Below, one piece after another: positions 16,638 through 23,480 of a stretch of DNA of 64,000 nt (positions are counted from its first letter, which is position 1; every line of letters begins with the position of its first letter). Below the pieces are notes generated by a model, which was not told the origin of the DNA, searched no databases, and saw nothing but the letters and a program-made list of their open reading frames with translations. The translations under genes and the position numbers were made by a program. This DNA comes from an uncultured archaeon (lineage in GTDB: Archaea > Asgardarchaeota > Hermodarchaeia > Hermodarchaeales > Hermodarchaeaceae). The stretch is taken from the NCBI GenBank assembly GCA_964347045.1, contig CAYFXC010000003.1:102701-166700 (forward strand), in the 5' to 3' direction.

Positions 16638-19382
16638 ATGGTTAAGAAAGGTGGATGTAAGCCACTTACCTCGGGGGCTCCGAATGTGACTACATTAGCA
16701 GAGCTTCGCAAGTACTACTCCATGCTAAAAGATATTAGTGCAAAATGTCGGACAATTATGGGTGGTCTCCCTTCTGAAATTAAAACCTCATTGGAAGATG
16801 TGGGACGGGAACTTGTAAGCCTAGAAGGTTTTGATAGGGATGCAAAAACGAGTTGGTCCCTAAGTCCGAAAAAACGTCGTCTTATAAAGCAAATTGATCA
16901 AGGGCTGCCAAAAATCGATGAAGATCTCTCTCGTTCACTTCGACTTCACATTGAGCTGTTGAAGACTTACATGACTGAGCTTGAAGAGCTAAAAGCAACA
17001 ATAATGACTTTTGATATTAAACTAGGACGTGATCTCAACAATCTCACCTTTCCTTCGACACAAGGGGGACATTCAGTTGTTTTGCCGGTTCTTTCACGAT
17101 TTGTAGCTAATTTTGAAGGTCTTTCTAAACAATTACGTGACGCTCTACTAAAGCAAACGAATGATATGCTTGAACAAAATCGGGCGTTGATTAAAACCTA
17201 CGATCGGTTTGTTGGTATTGACACGAGTGATGTTTCAATTAGTGCCGAGCGGGAAACTGTTGATGTGAGTACTATCCCGGAGCTTTTTGAAATTCGCAAG
17301 ACACTACGCCAAGAGCATGAATATCTCACAAGTCGACGTGGCGAAGTTGTTGATACATTACGAGCGAAACTGCAAGCTAGTATTGAATCCTCCGTATCCC
17401 TCTTAGAGACTGCTCGTAGTTTGAGTCTCAAAGTTCCTATGGCTATTTCTACATCACTTGAAGCGCTGAAAAAACAACTCAAAGGTGAGACTAATCTCAC
17501 CACACTTCTCGGGTTGGTTCAACAATATGATGGGCAAGTGTTAAAAGCCTCAAGTGAAGTCAGAAGCCAAATACTTGAATTTGGTCATAATCTTAACCGC
17601 ATTCTTGCTAGCGCTAATATCGCTAGTGAAGCCACTTTTCTTCCTCCTTTACCTCCTGAAGTTCCCAAAGATGCGGATTTAGCTGCGCTAGTTGCAAGCT
17701 ATGAACGCCTACAAGCATACCATACCAATGTTGAAACAGCTATCCGTGCTGAGATCATGCGTATAGTAGATGATTTGACTCGTGCTGTAAAACGGAATGT
17801 GCTTCCAAACACTGCGGAACTAGATAAATTCGTGAAAAATGAATCGAAAAAGGTAAAGAAAGGAGATCTGAAAGTTCTTGTCAAGGTATACTCCGAGGTT
17901 GCGGCTCAAATAATTGATGAACATGGAAAATTACTAGCTGAAATTAGAACTCAAGAAGCTTTACTAACTCGAATCTCAGAAACCGCTAGTACAATTCTTG
18001 ATAAAACCACAATGGGTGCAGCTCCTGCTCCTGTTCGAACCACAGACATTAGCTTCCCTGAGTTGGTTGAGGCGTATGCAAGACTACGAAAGCATGTTGA
18101 GAATCGGATCGATCTGTTCCGAAAAGCTTGGGAACGTGAACTCAACGCGCTTCTTGCTGAAATCCAAGTGATAAAACCAACCTATCGGGAATCTTTCAAA
18201 ACCATGGAAGAATTTTTGGAAAGTGCTATTGCACATATCCGCGCTAGTACTAGTTTCGAGGAAATTGAAGAAGTCGCCCGTGAGGCTCAAGGAGATGCTC
18301 TATATAAAGCGCAAGACGCCATTGAAAATCTCAAATATCGCCTAGATCTCAAACTGCGATTGGCGGTTTCAAAACTTTTAGGTATGGGGTTAACTATTCC
18401 TTCGGAAGTCCAGTCAGCCATTCAAGAACTGACAACGGTGGTCCCCGCTAGTGAAACCTATGAAGAAGCGATTCGTAAGGCCCATCACATTGTTGAACTT
18501 TTCGAAAAACGAATTGTGGGATACTTCAACCAGACTCTTAATGAACAAATCAAAGCCTTCTCAGAGTTAACAAGCGTGTCTGCTTCCTTGGGCATCAAAA
18601 CAGACTCTTATGTCAAAGAATCAATGAAACTGCAGGACAAATTACCCGCAAATATTGAGGAACTCCCTGACCGGTTCGACGAACTTCGTGAATTACTTAC
18701 CGACCCTAAGTTGCTTAAGGATATCCGTTCGAAAGCCAACGAAGTCTGGCGAAATCTCAATTCAGTTACTGATCTTCTTGAACGTCATGGACAAGCCGAG
18801 ATTGTAGCTAAACTAAAGGATCTGCTCGCTCGTGTTCCCGACGCCTTAGAAGCTGAACAAGTAAACACTGTTCTTGAAATTTGTATGGCTCTCATTGAAG
18901 CGCAAAATAGTGTACTTGATATTCTTCGCAACATGGAGCAAAAGACTGGACAAGCATACGAGCAGTTATTAGAAAATACTACCGAATACTACTCAACGAT
19001 TAAAAGAGTATACGCGGCACGACCGCTTGAATTTAGCAAAATCATATTTCCGTTAGATACTTTGCAGAATTTGCGTGGAAAATTAGAAACCGTTAATTCT
19101 CTACCCGAATCTATTGATATATTCACAACCATCCGCAGTTTAGAACAGCAATGGTTAGAAAAAATCAAAGAGCTTGATGAATGGCACAAGGCGCTCCGCG
19201 TTTTCCTCGCTGACTTTAATCCAGCGGCGCCTAAAGCTGAACGTAATCGTCAACTCAACGAAATCGAAAAAAGAATTCGCGAAACCTATACGCGCGAGGA
19301 TACTGCAAACTACCTCACTTGGGCTGCCAGAGAACTTGCAGCTGTCATGATCGAACAAAAAACAAAAGCAAAGAAAAAATAG
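16638..19382 (+). CDS. Large all-alpha-helical repeat/coiled-coil protein (~900 aa; start ATG 16638 or GTG 16686)
   Basis: Long ORF rich in L/E/K/A with no TM segment or catalytic motif; 12 bp before the tubulin-like gene; the ORF-track start at 16386 overlaps map on the other strand. Confidence 0.85.
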   Translation: MVKKGGCKPLTSGAPNVTTLAELRKYYSMLKDISAKCRTIMGGLPSEIKTSLEDVGRELVSLEGFDRDAKTSWSLSPKKRRLIKQIDQGLPKIDEDLSRSLRLHIELLKTYMTELEELKATIMTFDIKLGRDLNNLTFPSTQGGHSVVLPVLSRFVANFEGLSKQLRDALLKQTNDMLEQNRALIKTYDRFVGIDTSDVSISAERETVDVSTIPELFEIRKTLRQEHEYLTSRRGEVVDTLRAKLQASIESSVSLLETARSLSLKVPMAISTSLEALKKQLKGETNLTTLLGLVQQYDGQVLKASSEVRSQILEFGHNLNRILASANIASEATFLPPLPPEVPKDADLAALVASYERLQAYHTNVETAIRAEIMRIVDDLTRAVKRNVLPNTAELDKFVKNESKKVKKGDLKVLVKVYSEVAAQIIDEHGKLLAEIRTQEALLTRISETASTILDKTTMGAAPAPVRTTDISFPELVEAYARLRKHVENRIDLFRKAWERELNALLAEIQVIKPTYRESFKTMEEFLESAIAHIRASTSFEEIEEVAREAQGDALYKAQDAIENLKYRLDLKLRLAVSKLLGMGLTIPSEVQSAIQELTTVVPASETYEEAIRKAHHIVELFEKRIVGYFNQTLNEQIKAFSELTSVSASLGIKTDSYVKESMKLQDKLPANIEELPDRFDELRELLTDPKLLKDIRSKANEVWRNLNSVTDLLERHGQAEIVAKLKDLLARVPDALEAEQVNTVLEICMALIEAQNSVLDILRNMEQKTGQAYEQLLENTTEYYSTIKRVYAARPLEFSKIIFPLDTLQNLRGKLETVNSLPESIDIFTTIRSLEQQWLEKIKELDEWHKALRVFLADFNPAAPKAERNRQLNEIEKRIRETYTREDTANYLTWAARELAAVMIEQKTKAKKK

Positions 19383-19394
19383 GGTTGGATTAAC

Positions 19395-20744
19395 ATGGAA
19401 GCAACTGATGAAGGACCGCGAGTCGCGGAAGTATTTGCCATCGGAATTGGAGAATGCGGAAGCAACCTCGTTGGGGCCTACCTCAAGCAAGCGCGTGAAC
19501 GCATGCTACCACCACGTATCCGCGGATACTTGTGCATGAATACTGATCGATCCGACATAACGAAGCTCCGTCAAAAATATGACATTCCCAAAGAAAACAC
19601 TCTCCTTTATGGCGCATCAGATATTGGTTGTGGCGGGAATTTTACTGATGGTTATAATTACGTTCATGACTTTAAAGATGTCATCATGGGTCAGTTGACG
19701 CAACTGGGGTTTGAGGGAGTCTCTGGGTTTGTCATATTTACGTCATCGGGCGGTGGAACTGGCTGTGGAGGCGCCCCCGCTTTAATTGAGATATTAAAGG
19801 AAAGATTTCAAGAGGAAGAAGGCCGTCGCATTTTCGTCTACGTCTTTACCGTACTTCCTTTCAAGGATCAAACCTCTGAAGCTCTCAACACTATGTGGTC
19901 GCTCTCCAAACTTCTGCGTGGGCAATTAGAAGATCGCGGAGCTGATCTTGTTTGTCTCCTTAGTAACCGCGCTATGCTTCGACGTATTCTGGCTTGGCGA
20001 GAAGGCGAAGTAGCTGATTTCTTACAAAAGCAGTTACAAATTGATGTGGCTAAAGTTACCGATGTTGAAGGAATGGTTCCTTCAACTGTCGATGGTGCCG
20101 ATGATGTGTCCAAGGCACAAGAATCAGCTTTTGTGGAACTCGTGAATCCTCTTGCGCTTAGGTTTGTTGAGCACATGCTAAGTCCTGGCGTCGTTGAGCC
20201 GGGTAAAGAAGTTTTTCCGACAACGGACATCGCAGACTACGCAAGGAAACTGGATCCTATTGTGGTGCCCTGTCTATATACTGATGTAAGTCTAATTCCC
20301 TCTGCTGGAAACATTCCGACGCAACTAAAAACAATGGTCAAATATGCCGTTGAACATTGTAGCTTTGCCGAAATCGGTTCAGAGCCAGGGGCTTCATCGA
20401 CATATTATACCTTCTCAGGAACTCGTGAATATGCACGAGCTGAATACGATCCACATATTAAACAGGCGCTTCGCCCTTATATTGCAAAGGGCGCAGCGAT
20501 TACACCCTGTTTTGTGTCCTATGATGAGGACACCCATCCATCTGATTTACTTCTTCTTTTGGGACTTCCTCAGATTCCTGAAATTGAGGATTTGGTAAAT
20601 TCAGCTACTGAACTTGTGGATCTTCATGCAGGTCCCTCGCCACTTCGAAGAGGTTGGTTTAAGAAATCTAAGGGTGTCGGTGAAGAAGTTCTTCGTGCAT
20701 CCATCCGTGATGTTGCTGAATTATTCAATCTCGAAATGAAGTAA
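19395..20744 (+). CDS. Divergent tubulin/FtsZ-superfamily GTPase (CetZ/tubulin-like)
   Basis: T1 GIGECGSN, T2 MNTD, T3 GCGGN, T4 SSGGGTGCGG, T5 VLPF, T6 LSN, T7 TTDIADY. Confidence 0.92.
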   Translation: MEATDEGPRVAEVFAIGIGECGSNLVGAYLKQARERMLPPRIRGYLCMNTDRSDITKLRQKYDIPKENTLLYGASDIGCGGNFTDGYNYVHDFKDVIMGQLTQLGFEGVSGFVIFTSSGGGTGCGGAPALIEILKERFQEEEGRRIFVYVFTVLPFKDQTSEALNTMWSLSKLLRGQLEDRGADLVCLLSNRAMLRRILAWREGEVADFLQKQLQIDVAKVTDVEGMVPSTVDGADDVSKAQESAFVELVNPLALRFVEHMLSPGVVEPGKEVFPTTDIADYARKLDPIVVPCLYTDVSLIPSAGNIPTQLKTMVKYAVEHCSFAEIGSEPGASSTYYTFSGTREYARAEYDPHIKQALRPYIAKGAAITPCFVSYDEDTHPSDLLLLLGLPQIPEIEDLVNSATELVDLHAGPSPLRRGWFKKSKGVGEEVLRASIRDVAELFNLEMK

Positions 20745-20771: not shown

Positions 20772-21782
20772 TTGATAACAGCAGAAGAATTGCTGGAACG
20801 CATCCTCATTCTCACCACAGTCAACTCCACTCTTATTCATGCTCTTATTACCATAGAAGCCGAAGGAGATCTTAATCCTAAACAAATCAACCAGCTTGCT
20901 AGAGGAGTCCGGGCGGTTCGAGAATCGGTTGAGCAAGCACTAGTCGACTCAAAAAATAACAATATTTCTTCAGGTTCGTCCTTTGTGGATGACACCATCA
21001 AAGTTATTCTCACTCATCTTGAACGCATTGAAGCAGCCTTGGACTCATATGCGAAATCGCGAAAGAGAAAAATCTCAAAAGTGGAAGTAAAAGAACCCAT
21101 TATTGCTACCCAACAACTAGTTGCTGAAGCTAGCGAGGATCTTGCGGGACTTACTAGTAAGCCATTTCAACGTCGACTTTCTGTTTTTGATCCGGATAAG
21201 CTTCTTCCACCTATTCAGCAGTTATTGGATAAGTATTCCAGCAGGAGTCACCTTCTTTTACCCAATTATTGGTTCGAATCATGTCGGGAGCTATTCCGAT
21301 ACAGTGAACCACGTGAGGTGATCAAAGAAGTTACGCGTATAGCAAGTCAAATTTTCTACTCTCTTACACGCCGATTTCTTGCTGAAGCACCCTGTGCAGG
21401 TCTGCTTCAAGAACTTTCACGAAAAGGTTCACTAGGCAACGAATTAAACAGCCGTGAACGGAATAAAATCGCGGGAACTAGTAGTGAGTTCTATGATCAG
21501 CTTGCTAAAGCTCTAAAAGAAAATTCAGTAAAATCGAGTATTTCAGATGCTAAACGGAGTCTTCGCTCCTTTGATTGGGGTCCGGCTGACGTAGAGAAAC
21601 GGGTAGTTGGTGTAATTCATCGCAGTGCACGAGAACTTGTGGACCAAGCTGCAGATGGTAAGACTCTTTCAGTCCTAGAACGAATTATCCACGCTGAGCT
21701 TAGTCGCTACATCTCTGCGTTAGCTACGAATCTCCATAACTTACCGCGATTAAACAAATTGTTAACCGATATGAAGGTCTAA
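20772..21782 (+). CDS. Hypothetical all-helical protein, third gene of the tubulin-like operon
   Basis: 336-aa ORF, TTG start after purine-rich GGAGAAGAAGAAGG, 27 bp after the tubulin-like stop. Confidence 0.8.
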   Translation: MITAEELLERILILTTVNSTLIHALITIEAEGDLNPKQINQLARGVRAVRESVEQALVDSKNNNISSGSSFVDDTIKVILTHLERIEAALDSYAKSRKRKISKVEVKEPIIATQQLVAEASEDLAGLTSKPFQRRLSVFDPDKLLPPIQQLLDKYSSRSHLLLPNYWFESCRELFRYSEPREVIKEVTRIASQIFYSLTRRFLAEAPCAGLLQELSRKGSLGNELNSRERNKIAGTSSEFYDQLAKALKENSVKSSISDAKRSLRSFDWGPADVEKRVVGVIHRSARELVDQAADGKTLSVLERIIHAELSRYISALATNLHNLPRLNKLLTDMKV

Positions 21783-22381
21783 GTTGGGTATAGTCGCTTC
21801 TTTAATTGTGCGTTCCCTGTTTCAACGTCATAATCAATCAAATCTGCTCGAGAAAGGTCGCCCAATGCTTTTCTGATTGCAGTAGCTTCATGTCCGGCTG
21901 TTTTTGTAATCTCGTCGCGGGTCATCTTTTTCTTCTTTCCATGCAAAAGGAACAATGTCTTCGCATGGGGTTGAGCATAAAAGACGTCTTCAAGTAACGC
22001 AATGTATAGGGCTAACAATTCCTGAACCGGGATTGATGTTTCTTGTTCAGCTACCAGCTCTTTGTAGGTGTCAGACATCTTCTCTAATTGTGTCTTAATG
22101 GCGTTAAGTTCTGATTCTAAAGCTCGGTTCTTGACCATCAAATCAGTTGATTTATCCGCTGATTCCTTCAGTTCATTGATTGTTCTTTCCAATCTGTCAA
22201 TGGTCGCATTCTTGTTTTGAAGGTCACTGGTTAATTCCTCTATGCGTGCTTCTGCGGTTTTATTCCGTTCACGTTGCTCTACAAGCTCTTGGTTCATGTC
22301 ATTGACAATTTTTTGAACTTTTTTTACAGTCTTTGTGGCTTCAGCAGGATAATCCTTTTCGGGTGGTTTCTCAGTTGCCAT
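21779..22381 (-). CDS. Coiled-coil + C-terminal winged-helix protein (start ATG 22381 after AGGTGA)
   Basis: About 100 aa of heptads, then PHAKTLFLLH...MTRDEITKTAG....IRKALGDLSRADLIDYD. Confidence 0.8.
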   Translation of the reverse strand: MATEKPPEKDYPAEATKTVKKVQKIVNDMNQELVEQRERNKTAEARIEELTSDLQNKNATIDRLERTINELKESADKSTDLMVKNRALESELNAIKTQLEKMSDTYKELVAEQETSIPVQELLALYIALLEDVFYAQPHAKTLFLLHGKKKKMTRDEITKTAGHEATAIRKALGDLSRADLIDYDVETGNAQLKKRLYPT

Positions 22382-22448
22382 TCTATTCACCTTCTATTGT
22401 CACTTTACATTGCTTAGGGTTTCTTGTATTTATGGCTAGAGTTTTCAT

Positions 22449-23480
22449 CTACTTAGTGTTTTTTTGTTTGCGAGTTGCAATACGGTTGAGTTGAGGTGGT
22501 GGCGGAGGTGCTACAATTGATTCTTGGGTAAAATCGAAAATAGTTATCACGTCATTTTCAAACGTTGCCTTCAGTTGTTGTGTAGAATCCACAGTTCCCA
22601 ATGAGGTGGCTGTTAATTTATGTTCTTTAAAGATGGATATGACCGATTTAACATTATCCGGAATAGTCGTGACGATAAACCCTGTCGAGATGTACATTTT
22701 CAACCAAGTAGTTAAATCAAGATTCTTTGGAACAGGTATAGCCGCAAAATCGATGGTTGCGCCCTTTTGCGCATACTCCAACATTAGAAGGCTTGTCCCA
22801 ATAATGCCTCCGTTGCTCAAATCCTTTGATGCGGTAAGAAGACATCGTTCTGCAAGAACTCGCATTGCTTCATATCGTTTGAGAACATCCTTCGACTTCT
22901 TAAGGGCGGTAGTGTCCCATCCAAACTCATAATTCGGAGAAACACGTCCTTCTAAATCGACTGCTAGAATGAGCTGATCACCTGGCTGAGCTCCACCCGC
23001 ACTGATATAGGCTTCTCTGGGAACTGTTCCACAAATTGATGCACTTACTCCATTAATCGGGGCATTGGGTGTCGTATGTCCTCGGACTACTTCAACTTTG
23101 AACTTTTGCCCCGCGTCACAGATTCCTTCCATAAACTTCACACCTGCTTCCATTTCAGTGAATGCGACGTTAACCATAGCCACAATTGGGCGTCCACCCG
23201 CTGCATAGATATCATTCACATTAACAAGGATAGCAGCATACCCGGCAACATACGGCTTAGACTCCGCTAGTTCTGGGATGACTGCATCTGTTGAAAGCAA
23301 AATAAGATTATCTCCACCCAGGTCAATGGCTGCGGAGTCCTCTCCAATTGAAGAGAGAACATGTGGGCATTTGAACCCTTCATTTCGAAGAATTGTTACC
23401 AGTTGACCAATTGGTTGTTTACGGCGTAATCCCCAATAGTCTTTTACATCAGAAACGATAGTAGACAACTTTTCAGGCAT
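22449..23480 (-). CDS. AIR synthase/PurM-like ATPase (methanogenesis marker 2 / sll0787-like family)
   Basis: GEDSAAI, LLSTD, AGY.AILVNVNDIYAAGGRP, GHT.P, A.PGD.L..AVDL.G, KDLSNGG..GT. Confidence 0.8.
   Translation of the reverse strand: MPEKLSTIVSDVKDYWGLRRKQPIGQLVTILRNEGFKCPHVLSSIGEDSAAIDLGGDNLILLSTDAVIPELAESKPYVAGYAAILVNVNDIYAAGGRPIVAMVNVAFTEMEAGVKFMEGICDAGQKFKVEVVRGHTTPNAPINGVSASICGTVPREAYISAGGAQPGDQLILAVDLEGRVSPNYEFGWDTTALKKSKDVLKRYEAMRVLAERCLLTASKDLSNGGIIGTSLLMLEYAQKGATIDFAAIPVPKNLDLTTWLKMYISTGFIVTTIPDNVKSVISIFKEHKLTATSLGTVDSTQQLKATFENDVITIFDFTQESIVAPPPPPQLNRIATRKQKNTK

Follow-up and report, generated by a model that had tools for sequence, protein, structure and literature searches.

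A 64,000-nucleotide stretch of archaeal DNA (contig CAYFXC010000003.1, positions 102,701 to 166,700; here called the window), from an uncultured member of the Hermodarchaeia, carries an operon of three genes in the order rod protein, tubulin-like GTPase and 336-amino-acid (aa) helical protein. The rod protein, encoded by the first gene, is predicted to consist of about 12 very diverged tandem helical units of 62-80 residues. The GTPase encoded next to it probably belongs to Asg.Tub, a group of tubulin homologues from Asgard archaea. The interpretation developed below, which we regard as rather likely, is that the rod protein is a modular, rod-shaped partner that binds the side of Asg.Tub filaments. 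The three genes are as follows.

16638..19382, + strand: rod protein gene, 914 aa from its ATG, all-helical; the open reading frame (ORF) is open throughout (ORF and translation)
19395..20744, + strand: tubulin/FtsZ-superfamily GTPase gene, 449 aa, divergent, 12 nucleotides (nt) after the rod gene; Pfam Tubulin 67 bits
20772..21782, + strand: third operon gene, 336-aa all-helical protein of no known family, 27 nt after the tubulin gene

The start codon of the rod gene is ambiguous between ATG 16638 and GTG 16686, the latter giving a protein of 898 aa. Position 16686 may be the true start because most rod homologues (864-903 aa) start near residue 17, residues 1-16 are disordered in the AlphaFold2 model with a predicted local distance difference test score (pLDDT) below 50, and a G-run lies about 10 nt upstream of the GTG. 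The protein is rich in Leu, Glu and Lys and all-helical, and has no Pfam or NCBIfam match above cut-off (hmmscan; Pfam listed to E <= 0.1). Weak Pfam rows for MetOD2, ABC_tran_CTD, Ebola HR1-HR2 and LexA, together with an ATG17-like row in one relative, were rejected as helical noise because they fall under their own cut-offs and are inconsistent from member to member. No transmembrane segment was found in the rod protein, whose Kyte-Doolittle mean over 19 residues peaks at 1.41 (residue 745) and whose N-terminus is polar. An earlier note on this DNA had ruled out an SMC protein from the lack of a Walker motif, and this is borne out by the absence of any match to the Walker A pattern [AG]xxxxGK[ST]. 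An SMC- or Rad50-type coiled-coil ATPase was accordingly rejected, since Walker A is missing; there is also no SMC family match, and the helices are capped at about 40 residues.

The top match of the window tubulin among PDB sequences is CetZ 4b46 (E 7e-10), followed by gamma-tubulin and Asgard AtubA. Its alignment shows no variation in the glycine box of the tubulin signature or in the acidic T7 motif, and an ordinary FtsZ is also encoded elsewhere in the genome. Asg.Tub is the CetZ-like Asgard group named by Santana-Molina, del Saz-Navarro and Devos in 2023 (PMC9871819); the window tubulin was assigned to it, as a probable member, by matching the published description, not by sequence comparison.

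Predicted tandem helical units and double modules

The full-length AlphaFold2 model of the rod protein, built from 18 homologues, is entirely helical, with a mean pLDDT of 83.3 and a predicted template modelling score (pTM) of 0.38. Its 12 long helices measure 36-49 residues (mean 41.5) and recur every 67.7 +/- 5.2 residues. After each of them comes either a short loop with a helix of 12-23 residues or, in two places (325-347 and 451-472), a Pro-rich non-helical segment. The earlier note had listed ten recurring helix N-cap motifs, which are present at residues 212, 286, 347, 410, 472, 539, 607, 672, 741 and 821 with exactly the spacings it gave (74, 61, 63, 62, 67, 68, 65, 69 and 80 residues). 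It had also proposed that each motif starts a long helix, and in the model a motif does lie one residue ahead of each of H213, H287, H348, H411, H473, H540, H608, H673, H742 and H822 (H denotes a helix, numbered by its first residue). The turns that it named coincide with the loops after the long helices, and its Pro-rich stretches with the two non-helical return segments. Two extra units of 68 residues, with H77 and H145 as their long helices, lie upstream of its first motif. When residues 213-607 are folded separately from 25 sequences, the sub-model reaches a pLDDT of 86.6 and a pTM of 0.63, and confidence is high for its short return helices and its linkers. The N-terminal domain and the individual units are listed here.

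16695..17270, + strand: N-terminal helical domain (residues 20-211), made up of a helical hairpin and units 1-2, with a conserved stretch around N181
16863..17066, + strand: unit 1 (residues 76-143), H77-117 and H119-135 (AlphaFold2)
17067..17270, + strand: unit 2 (residues 144-211), H145-191 and a short H200-204 (AlphaFold2)
17271..17492, + strand: unit 3 (residues 212-285), H213-261 with a kink at 233, a loop and a short H268-281
17493..17675, + strand: unit 4 (residues 286-346), H287-324 and the Pro-rich return segment 325-347; linker pLDDT 86-89 in the sub-model
17676..17864, + strand: unit 5 (residues 347-409), H348-386 and H392-408
17865..18050, + strand: unit 6 (residues 410-471), H411-450 and the Pro-rich return segment 451-472; the extra modules of longer relatives align just ahead of it, after residue 408
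18051..18251, + strand: unit 7 (residues 472-538), H473-510 and H514-536
18252..18455, + strand: unit 8 (residues 539-606), H540-582 and H589-600 (AlphaFold2)
18456..18650, + strand: unit 9 (residues 607-671), H608-650 and H656-667
18651..18857, + strand: unit 10 (residues 672-740), H673-716 with a kink at 688, and H720-731
18858..19097, + strand: unit 11 (residues 741-820), H742-781 and broken helices 785-818 (AlphaFold2)
19098..19379, + strand: unit 12 and the C-terminal helices (residues 821-914), H822-857, H866-883 and H887-913 (AlphaFold2)

In the proposed architecture, a small three-helix bundle would be formed by the back half of a long helix, the return element after it and the front half of the long helix that follows. 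Adjacent bundles would share one continuous helix, because every bundle takes in the end of a long helix together with the start of its successor. A length of about 30 nm is estimated for the rod from about 10 bundles of helices of about 20 residues.

The same helices could instead pair between molecules, as a dimeric segmented coiled coil or as a filament of their own of the intermediate-filament or crescentin type, in which case the bundles would be a modelling artefact. Such an arrangement would suit a Leu/Glu/Lys-rich, all-helical protein with weak Pfam coiled-coil noise, a low full-length pTM and shallow alignments of 18-25 rows. However, loops containing Pro cap the helices at about 40 residues, with similar spacing in the relatives, and the return helices and linkers are among the confidently modelled parts. 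Local rod bundles also superpose on solved three-helix bundles with a root-mean-square deviation (rmsd) of 1.2-2.4 Å, although these values are within the tool's stated background for helical proteins. Intermolecular pairing is considered very unlikely.

Sequence-level evidence for the repeat was sought from motif counts and profile comparisons. The N-cap pattern [STDN][LIVFY]xx[LIVA] occurs at 8 of the 12 long-helix starts against an expectation of 1.2 (P 2e-5). A longer pattern, [DS][LF]xxLVxxY, is found at 347, 410 and 472; it was defined post hoc, and just 52 of 20,000 shuffles contain at least one match to it. Profiles were compared with hhalign. Its self-comparison mode returns an empty match list for the rod, and segments were cut and compared instead, with reversed templates as controls; 13 segments were taken from alignment A1, which holds close homologues, and a diverse alignment, A2, adds relatives at 17-30% identity. 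On A2, single units score 15.0 against 12.6 for the control (Mann-Whitney p 5e-6). Double units pair start to start over almost their whole length, with a best forward score of 46.7 against 26.8 reversed. Residues 145-286 and 287-410 match in register at 94% (P 9e-8), 287-410 and 411-539 match at 90%, and the double modules d1 (213-347) and d2 (348-472) match in register at 90% (P 1.4e-6). By these sequence comparisons the latter two, of about 125-135 aa each, are shown to be homologous copies.

17274..18053, + strand: double modules d1 (213-347) and d2 (348-472), detectably homologous; a putative variable-copy spacer, from hhalign and from hidden Markov model (HMM) matches in long relatives

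The strongest evidence for the rod repeat comes from length variants among the relatives. In relatives of 1140-1405 aa, a single insert accounts for the difference from the 900-aa forms; it aligns after residue 408, at a unit boundary. The inserts measure 237, 243, 261, 376, 381 or 484 residues, or about 2, 3 or 4 times 122. HMMs of d1 and d2 that were built from short forms only find extra in-register copies within the inserts of the long relatives at 19-24 bits, while in a reversed-sequence control of six double-module models the best score per model is 8.5-12.6 bits. Proline clusters, which serve as loop markers, recur every 45-80 residues or so, inside the inserts as well, with some double-length gaps. 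The 65 full-length rod genes from named genomes fall into two length classes, with 58 at 864-903 aa and 7 at 1152-1156 aa. The whole-module inserts and the d1/d2 matches within them together indicate that the central part of the rod is made of diverged double modules of about 125 aa, whose number varies. A tandem repeat that is invisible to BLAST can in this way be recovered from length variants. The double-module region would then be a spacer of adjustable length, of which some relatives carry 2, 3 or 4 more modules' worth. We infer that the functional ends of the rod, the N-terminal bundle (20-211) on one side and the distal part (473-914) on the other, are fixed.

A different kind of length variant is seen in two relatives of about 1025 aa (P0040 and P0043). 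Their insert of 150 aa, or about two 68-aa units, follows residue 84 and lies in the N-terminal domain, not in the spacer.

Predicted partnership with the tubulin homologue

The distribution of the operon was surveyed in 400 genomes of the phylum, representing 85 genera. The rod family is found in 129 of these genomes (26 genera), the tubulin in 124 (26 genera) and the third protein in 122 (25 genera), and the families concerned are essentially the same for all three. Gene order was assessed at 80 loci from named genomes, retrieved with the tubulin alignment. Of the 75 loci that could be tested, 74 have the rod gene directly upstream of, and on the same strand as, the tubulin gene, an arrangement also seen in all three distant loci. 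The third gene follows the tubulin gene at 74 of its 76 testable loci, a linkage as faithful as that of the rod gene. The rod-tubulin order occurs in Hermod-, Thor-, Borr-, Sif- and Hod/Heimdallarchaeia. Gaps between the operon ORFs range from a few to about 30 nt, and all three genes would be made together. A check for RNA evidence listed no record for the operon, which carries no information on its expression. The closest relatives of the operon (tubulin 93-97% identical) are mostly labelled Hermodarchaeota or plain Promethearchaeota, the rest being Thor-, Borr-, Sif- and Hod/Heimdallarchaeota. The rod family comprises 24 close and 25 distant homologues with full-length homology and invariant C-terminal W-H, I and Y residues. 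Its members evolve at a very different rate from their neighbour; across loci L001-L003 the tubulins keep 52-66% identity, against only 20-30% for the rod proteins.

Some genomes depart from the single compact operon. Eight larger genomes of family f10 (G057, G061, G067, G068, G072-G074 and G077) hold two rod-tubulin pairs, and several second-copy rod matches in this family carry an in-frame stop. With the window query, a single third-gene copy per genome is found in these two-pair genomes, so the second pair may lack the third gene or hold a diverged version. The operon is also occasionally split, in two genomes (at G058:C96 and G061:C230), where the tubulin gene and the third gene stand together 4-10 kb from the rod gene on the same strand. 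Separately, a feature search of the ESM Atlas with the rod returned one row, an unnamed 897-aa archaeal cluster (commonest in Thorarchaeota; score 0.88) that is probably the rod family itself.

Conservation within the rod is highest in the C-terminal 120 residues, where W849, H850, I880 and Y892 are invariant. Three features describe the predicted contact between this end of the rod and the tubulin.

18861..19379, + strand: best-conserved C-terminal domain (742-914), predicted tubulin-binding domain, from the conservation profile and the complex prediction
19179..19307, + strand: predicted contact patch (848-890), with contacts that include the invariant W849 and the nearly invariant Y884 (interface list)
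20283..20357, + strand: tubulin residues 297-321, predicted docking site; the loop after the T7/H8 motif and the next helix, read as the S7-H9 loop and H9

The complex of rod residues 742-914 with the tubulin was predicted with both partners given as alignments. The interaction prediction score from aligned errors (ipSAE) is 0.67, 0.67 and 0.70, against 0.02 for the best control, and the runs agree in at least 72% of contacts, with a partner pLDDT of at least 85. In the tool's calibration, 58 solved complexes out of 80 reached that mark, as did 2 mismatched pairs out of 110; these counts are only rough here because our own alignments were used. In the predicted contacts, tubulin residues 200-201 and 297-321 meet rod residues 848-858 and 879-890. 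From its position after the T7/H8 motif, the segment 297-321 is read as the S7-H9 loop and helix H9, which would place the contact on the lateral face. On the rod side, conservation is higher at the contact residues than elsewhere in the domain (0.63 versus 0.48, p 0.0075), and the interface coincides with the rod's best-conserved patch; the invariant H850 and I880 lie within the contact patch but are absent from the listed contacts. The C-terminal domain is thus predicted to bind the side of the Asg.Tub GTPase at the S7-H9 loop and H9.

A rod docked on the lateral face would leave the longitudinal contacts of the polymer free. It would project by about 30 nm and could space, crosslink or tether filaments through its N-terminal end. 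The earlier note had suggested a scaffold for the adjacent filament protein; the partnership is supported in silico, by gene order and by a complex prediction that passes its controls, and the rod may scaffold, crosslink, tether or restrain the filament. A more specific version, which is conceivable but which we put forward with some doubt, is a rod resembling a microtubule-associated protein (MAP). It would be the first tubulin-filament-associated family of archaea, docking on the lateral loop of every Asg.Tub subunit and setting how far away a second filament, a membrane or some other partner lies; lineages would adjust this distance through gain or loss of double modules of about 125 aa.

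The same predicted contact could also belong to an assembly regulator that caps subunits, blocks their lateral association or keeps them unpolymerised, comparable to EzrA acting on FtsZ. The S7-H9 loop is a lateral-contact loop in tubulins, and the tight coupling within the operon, with gaps of a few to about 30 nt, suits near-equimolar synthesis of the two proteins. A regulator does not obviously need a long rod that varies by whole modules between lineages, however, and the conservation of the N-terminal domain suggests that the opposite end of the rod has another function. We consider a regulatory role unlikely.

Several results weigh against the modular side-binding rod. The repeat is structural and barely visible in sequence, where its signal is above chance but weak. 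In the close-homologue alignment A1, unit-versus-unit profile scores equal the reversed control (12.6 versus 12.3), and self-BLASTP (E <= 1) gives no off-diagonal match in the window rod protein or in eight relatives, long forms included. Despite the common structural pattern, units 7-12 have no detectable sequence similarity to units 3-6, and the excess of forward over reversed scores could partly reflect a shared helix-loop pattern instead of common descent. The pTM of the full-length model is low, and the straightness of the rod and its length of 30 nm are estimates from helix lengths. The tubulin residues at the predicted contact are less conserved than the rest of that protein (0.55 versus 0.69), and the complex model, while it supports binding between rod and tubulin, is a prediction only. 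The internal repeat that the earlier note had claimed is seen as an in-register hhalign signal on the diverse alignment and is absent from close-homologue profiles and from self-BLAST.

Some of these results would be expected if the pattern were a mere grammar of N-caps, helices of about 40 residues and loops, which arose by no tandem duplication, and if the gene neighbourhood reflected co-regulation of proteins that make no contact. N-cap motifs are generic to helices, the close-homologue and BLAST comparisons are silent, and the tubulin side of the interface is not conserved above average. This explanation does not account for the whole-module inserts, which are matched by d1 and d2 HMMs built without them, or for the identical 9-residue pattern at 347, 410 and 472. 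It is also at odds with a complex score that is far over its controls and falls on invariant residues of the family, and with a gene order kept across at least five Asgard lineages. We regard this explanation as very unlikely, and retain the modular side-binding rod as the better account of these data.

Comparison with known systems and neighbouring genes

The connectivity predicted for the rod, in which bundles share a continuous helix, is like that of spectrin, EzrA and Ebh rods. The resemblance is one of topology and carries no claim of homology, because the structural values are at background and Foldseek against the PDB gives no match at E <= 0.001 for either the full-length or the 213-607 model, a check that the earlier note had proposed. 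Similarly, a shape search of the ESM Atlas with the rod gives template modelling (TM) scores of at most 0.34, and the rod family profile finds nothing under E 0.17 among PDB sequences. The description of a spectrin/plakin-like rod may apply to the predicted three-helix-bundle connectivity and fails for family membership, as the sequence-based tests for spectrin and EzrA found no match. The earlier interpretation is thus partly supported; it is apparently right in architecture and probably right about the partnership, and the rod is not a member of the spectrin or EzrA family.

The spectrin repeat (PF00435), as found in spectrin, alpha-actinin and plakins, matches neither the rod (hmmscan E <= 0.1) nor any of 23 family members (E <= 0.01). 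Spectrin shares with the rod, where the feature is predicted, three-helix bundles joined by a continuous helix in an extended cytoskeletal linker. It differs in unit length, with about 106 residues in three helices of about 30 against 62-80 (period 67.7 +/- 5.2) in the rod, in having a B helix where some return elements of the rod are Pro-rich segments, and in its partner, which is actin and not a tubulin homologue. EzrA (PF06160), an FtsZ regulator of Bacillus and Staphylococcus, likewise gives no Pfam, NCBIfam or PDB-sequence match for the rod, and is reportedly built of five units of about 100 aa, against about 12 of 62-80 aa here. The rod, unlike EzrA, has no N-terminal membrane anchor, its predicted contact is a side loop of tubulin, and its gene is in an operon with that of its partner; the global rmsd of about 25 Å between EzrA (PDB 4UXV and 4UY3) and the rod model indicates another overall shape.

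MAP65_ASE1 (PF03999) is not listed for the rod by hmmscan at E <= 0.1. PRC1, of the PRC1/MAP65/Ase1 group of microtubule crosslinkers, is reportedly also a rod of helices that carries its tubulin-binding domain, likewise helical, near the C-terminal end, a layout like that predicted for the rod protein. This group (PDB 4L3I and 4L6Y) provides the top Foldseek row for both rod models, which is non-significant, with 318/395 residues aligned. Among the weak structural rows for the rod there are also DUF1542 and GA/FIVAR clusters and Embp 6gv5, which are Ebh/Embp-type rods (FIVAR-GA, DUF1542) from surface proteins of Gram-positive bacteria. Ebh is reportedly a string of three-helix bundles in alternating connection, its double repeat measuring about 126 aa.

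Work on Asgard archaea has so far centred on homologues of actin, ESCRT and true tubulin, and we know of no study of the Asg.Tub group since it was named in 2023. No paper describing the rod protein was found, and the literature searched gave no accessory protein for an archaeal tubulin-family filament. The 2023 study noted unknown genes next to Asg.Tub, most of them with coiled-coil regions, and does not describe the rod family, its repeats, the fixed order of three genes or the binding (PMC9871819). In a 2026 preprint, a 'CetZ-related Asgard clade' serves only as an outgroup. The repeat anatomy of the rod and its modular length are new here. In these archaea, close relatives of eukaryotes, the rod protein is a candidate for a filament-associated protein, and as a conserved partner with a predicted docking site and a modular build it makes Asg.Tub filaments experimentally approachable. 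If the interpretation is true, tubulin-type polymers would have acquired rods of connected three-helix bundles beyond eukaryotes and bacteria as well. On the more doubtful MAP-like version, Asgard archaea would have evolved the logic of a rod plus a binding domain, as in linkers of the spectrin and PRC1/MAP65 types, independently of eukaryotes or before them.

The operon is followed in the window by genes on the opposite strand, the first of which overlaps its end.

21779-22390, - strand: convergent gene for a coiled-coil and winged-helix protein, overlapping the operon end

This gene was considered as part of the conserved module and rejected. It is found at that position in 11 of the 80 loci (tblastn E <= 1e-5), and it is not a core member because it is restricted to close Hermodarchaeia relatives. 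Beyond it, at 22449-23480 (- strand), lies an AIR-synthase-related gene in what is apparently a Hermodarchaeia genome; its best match is 'methanogenesis marker 2' at 290 bits, under the 365-bit cut-off.

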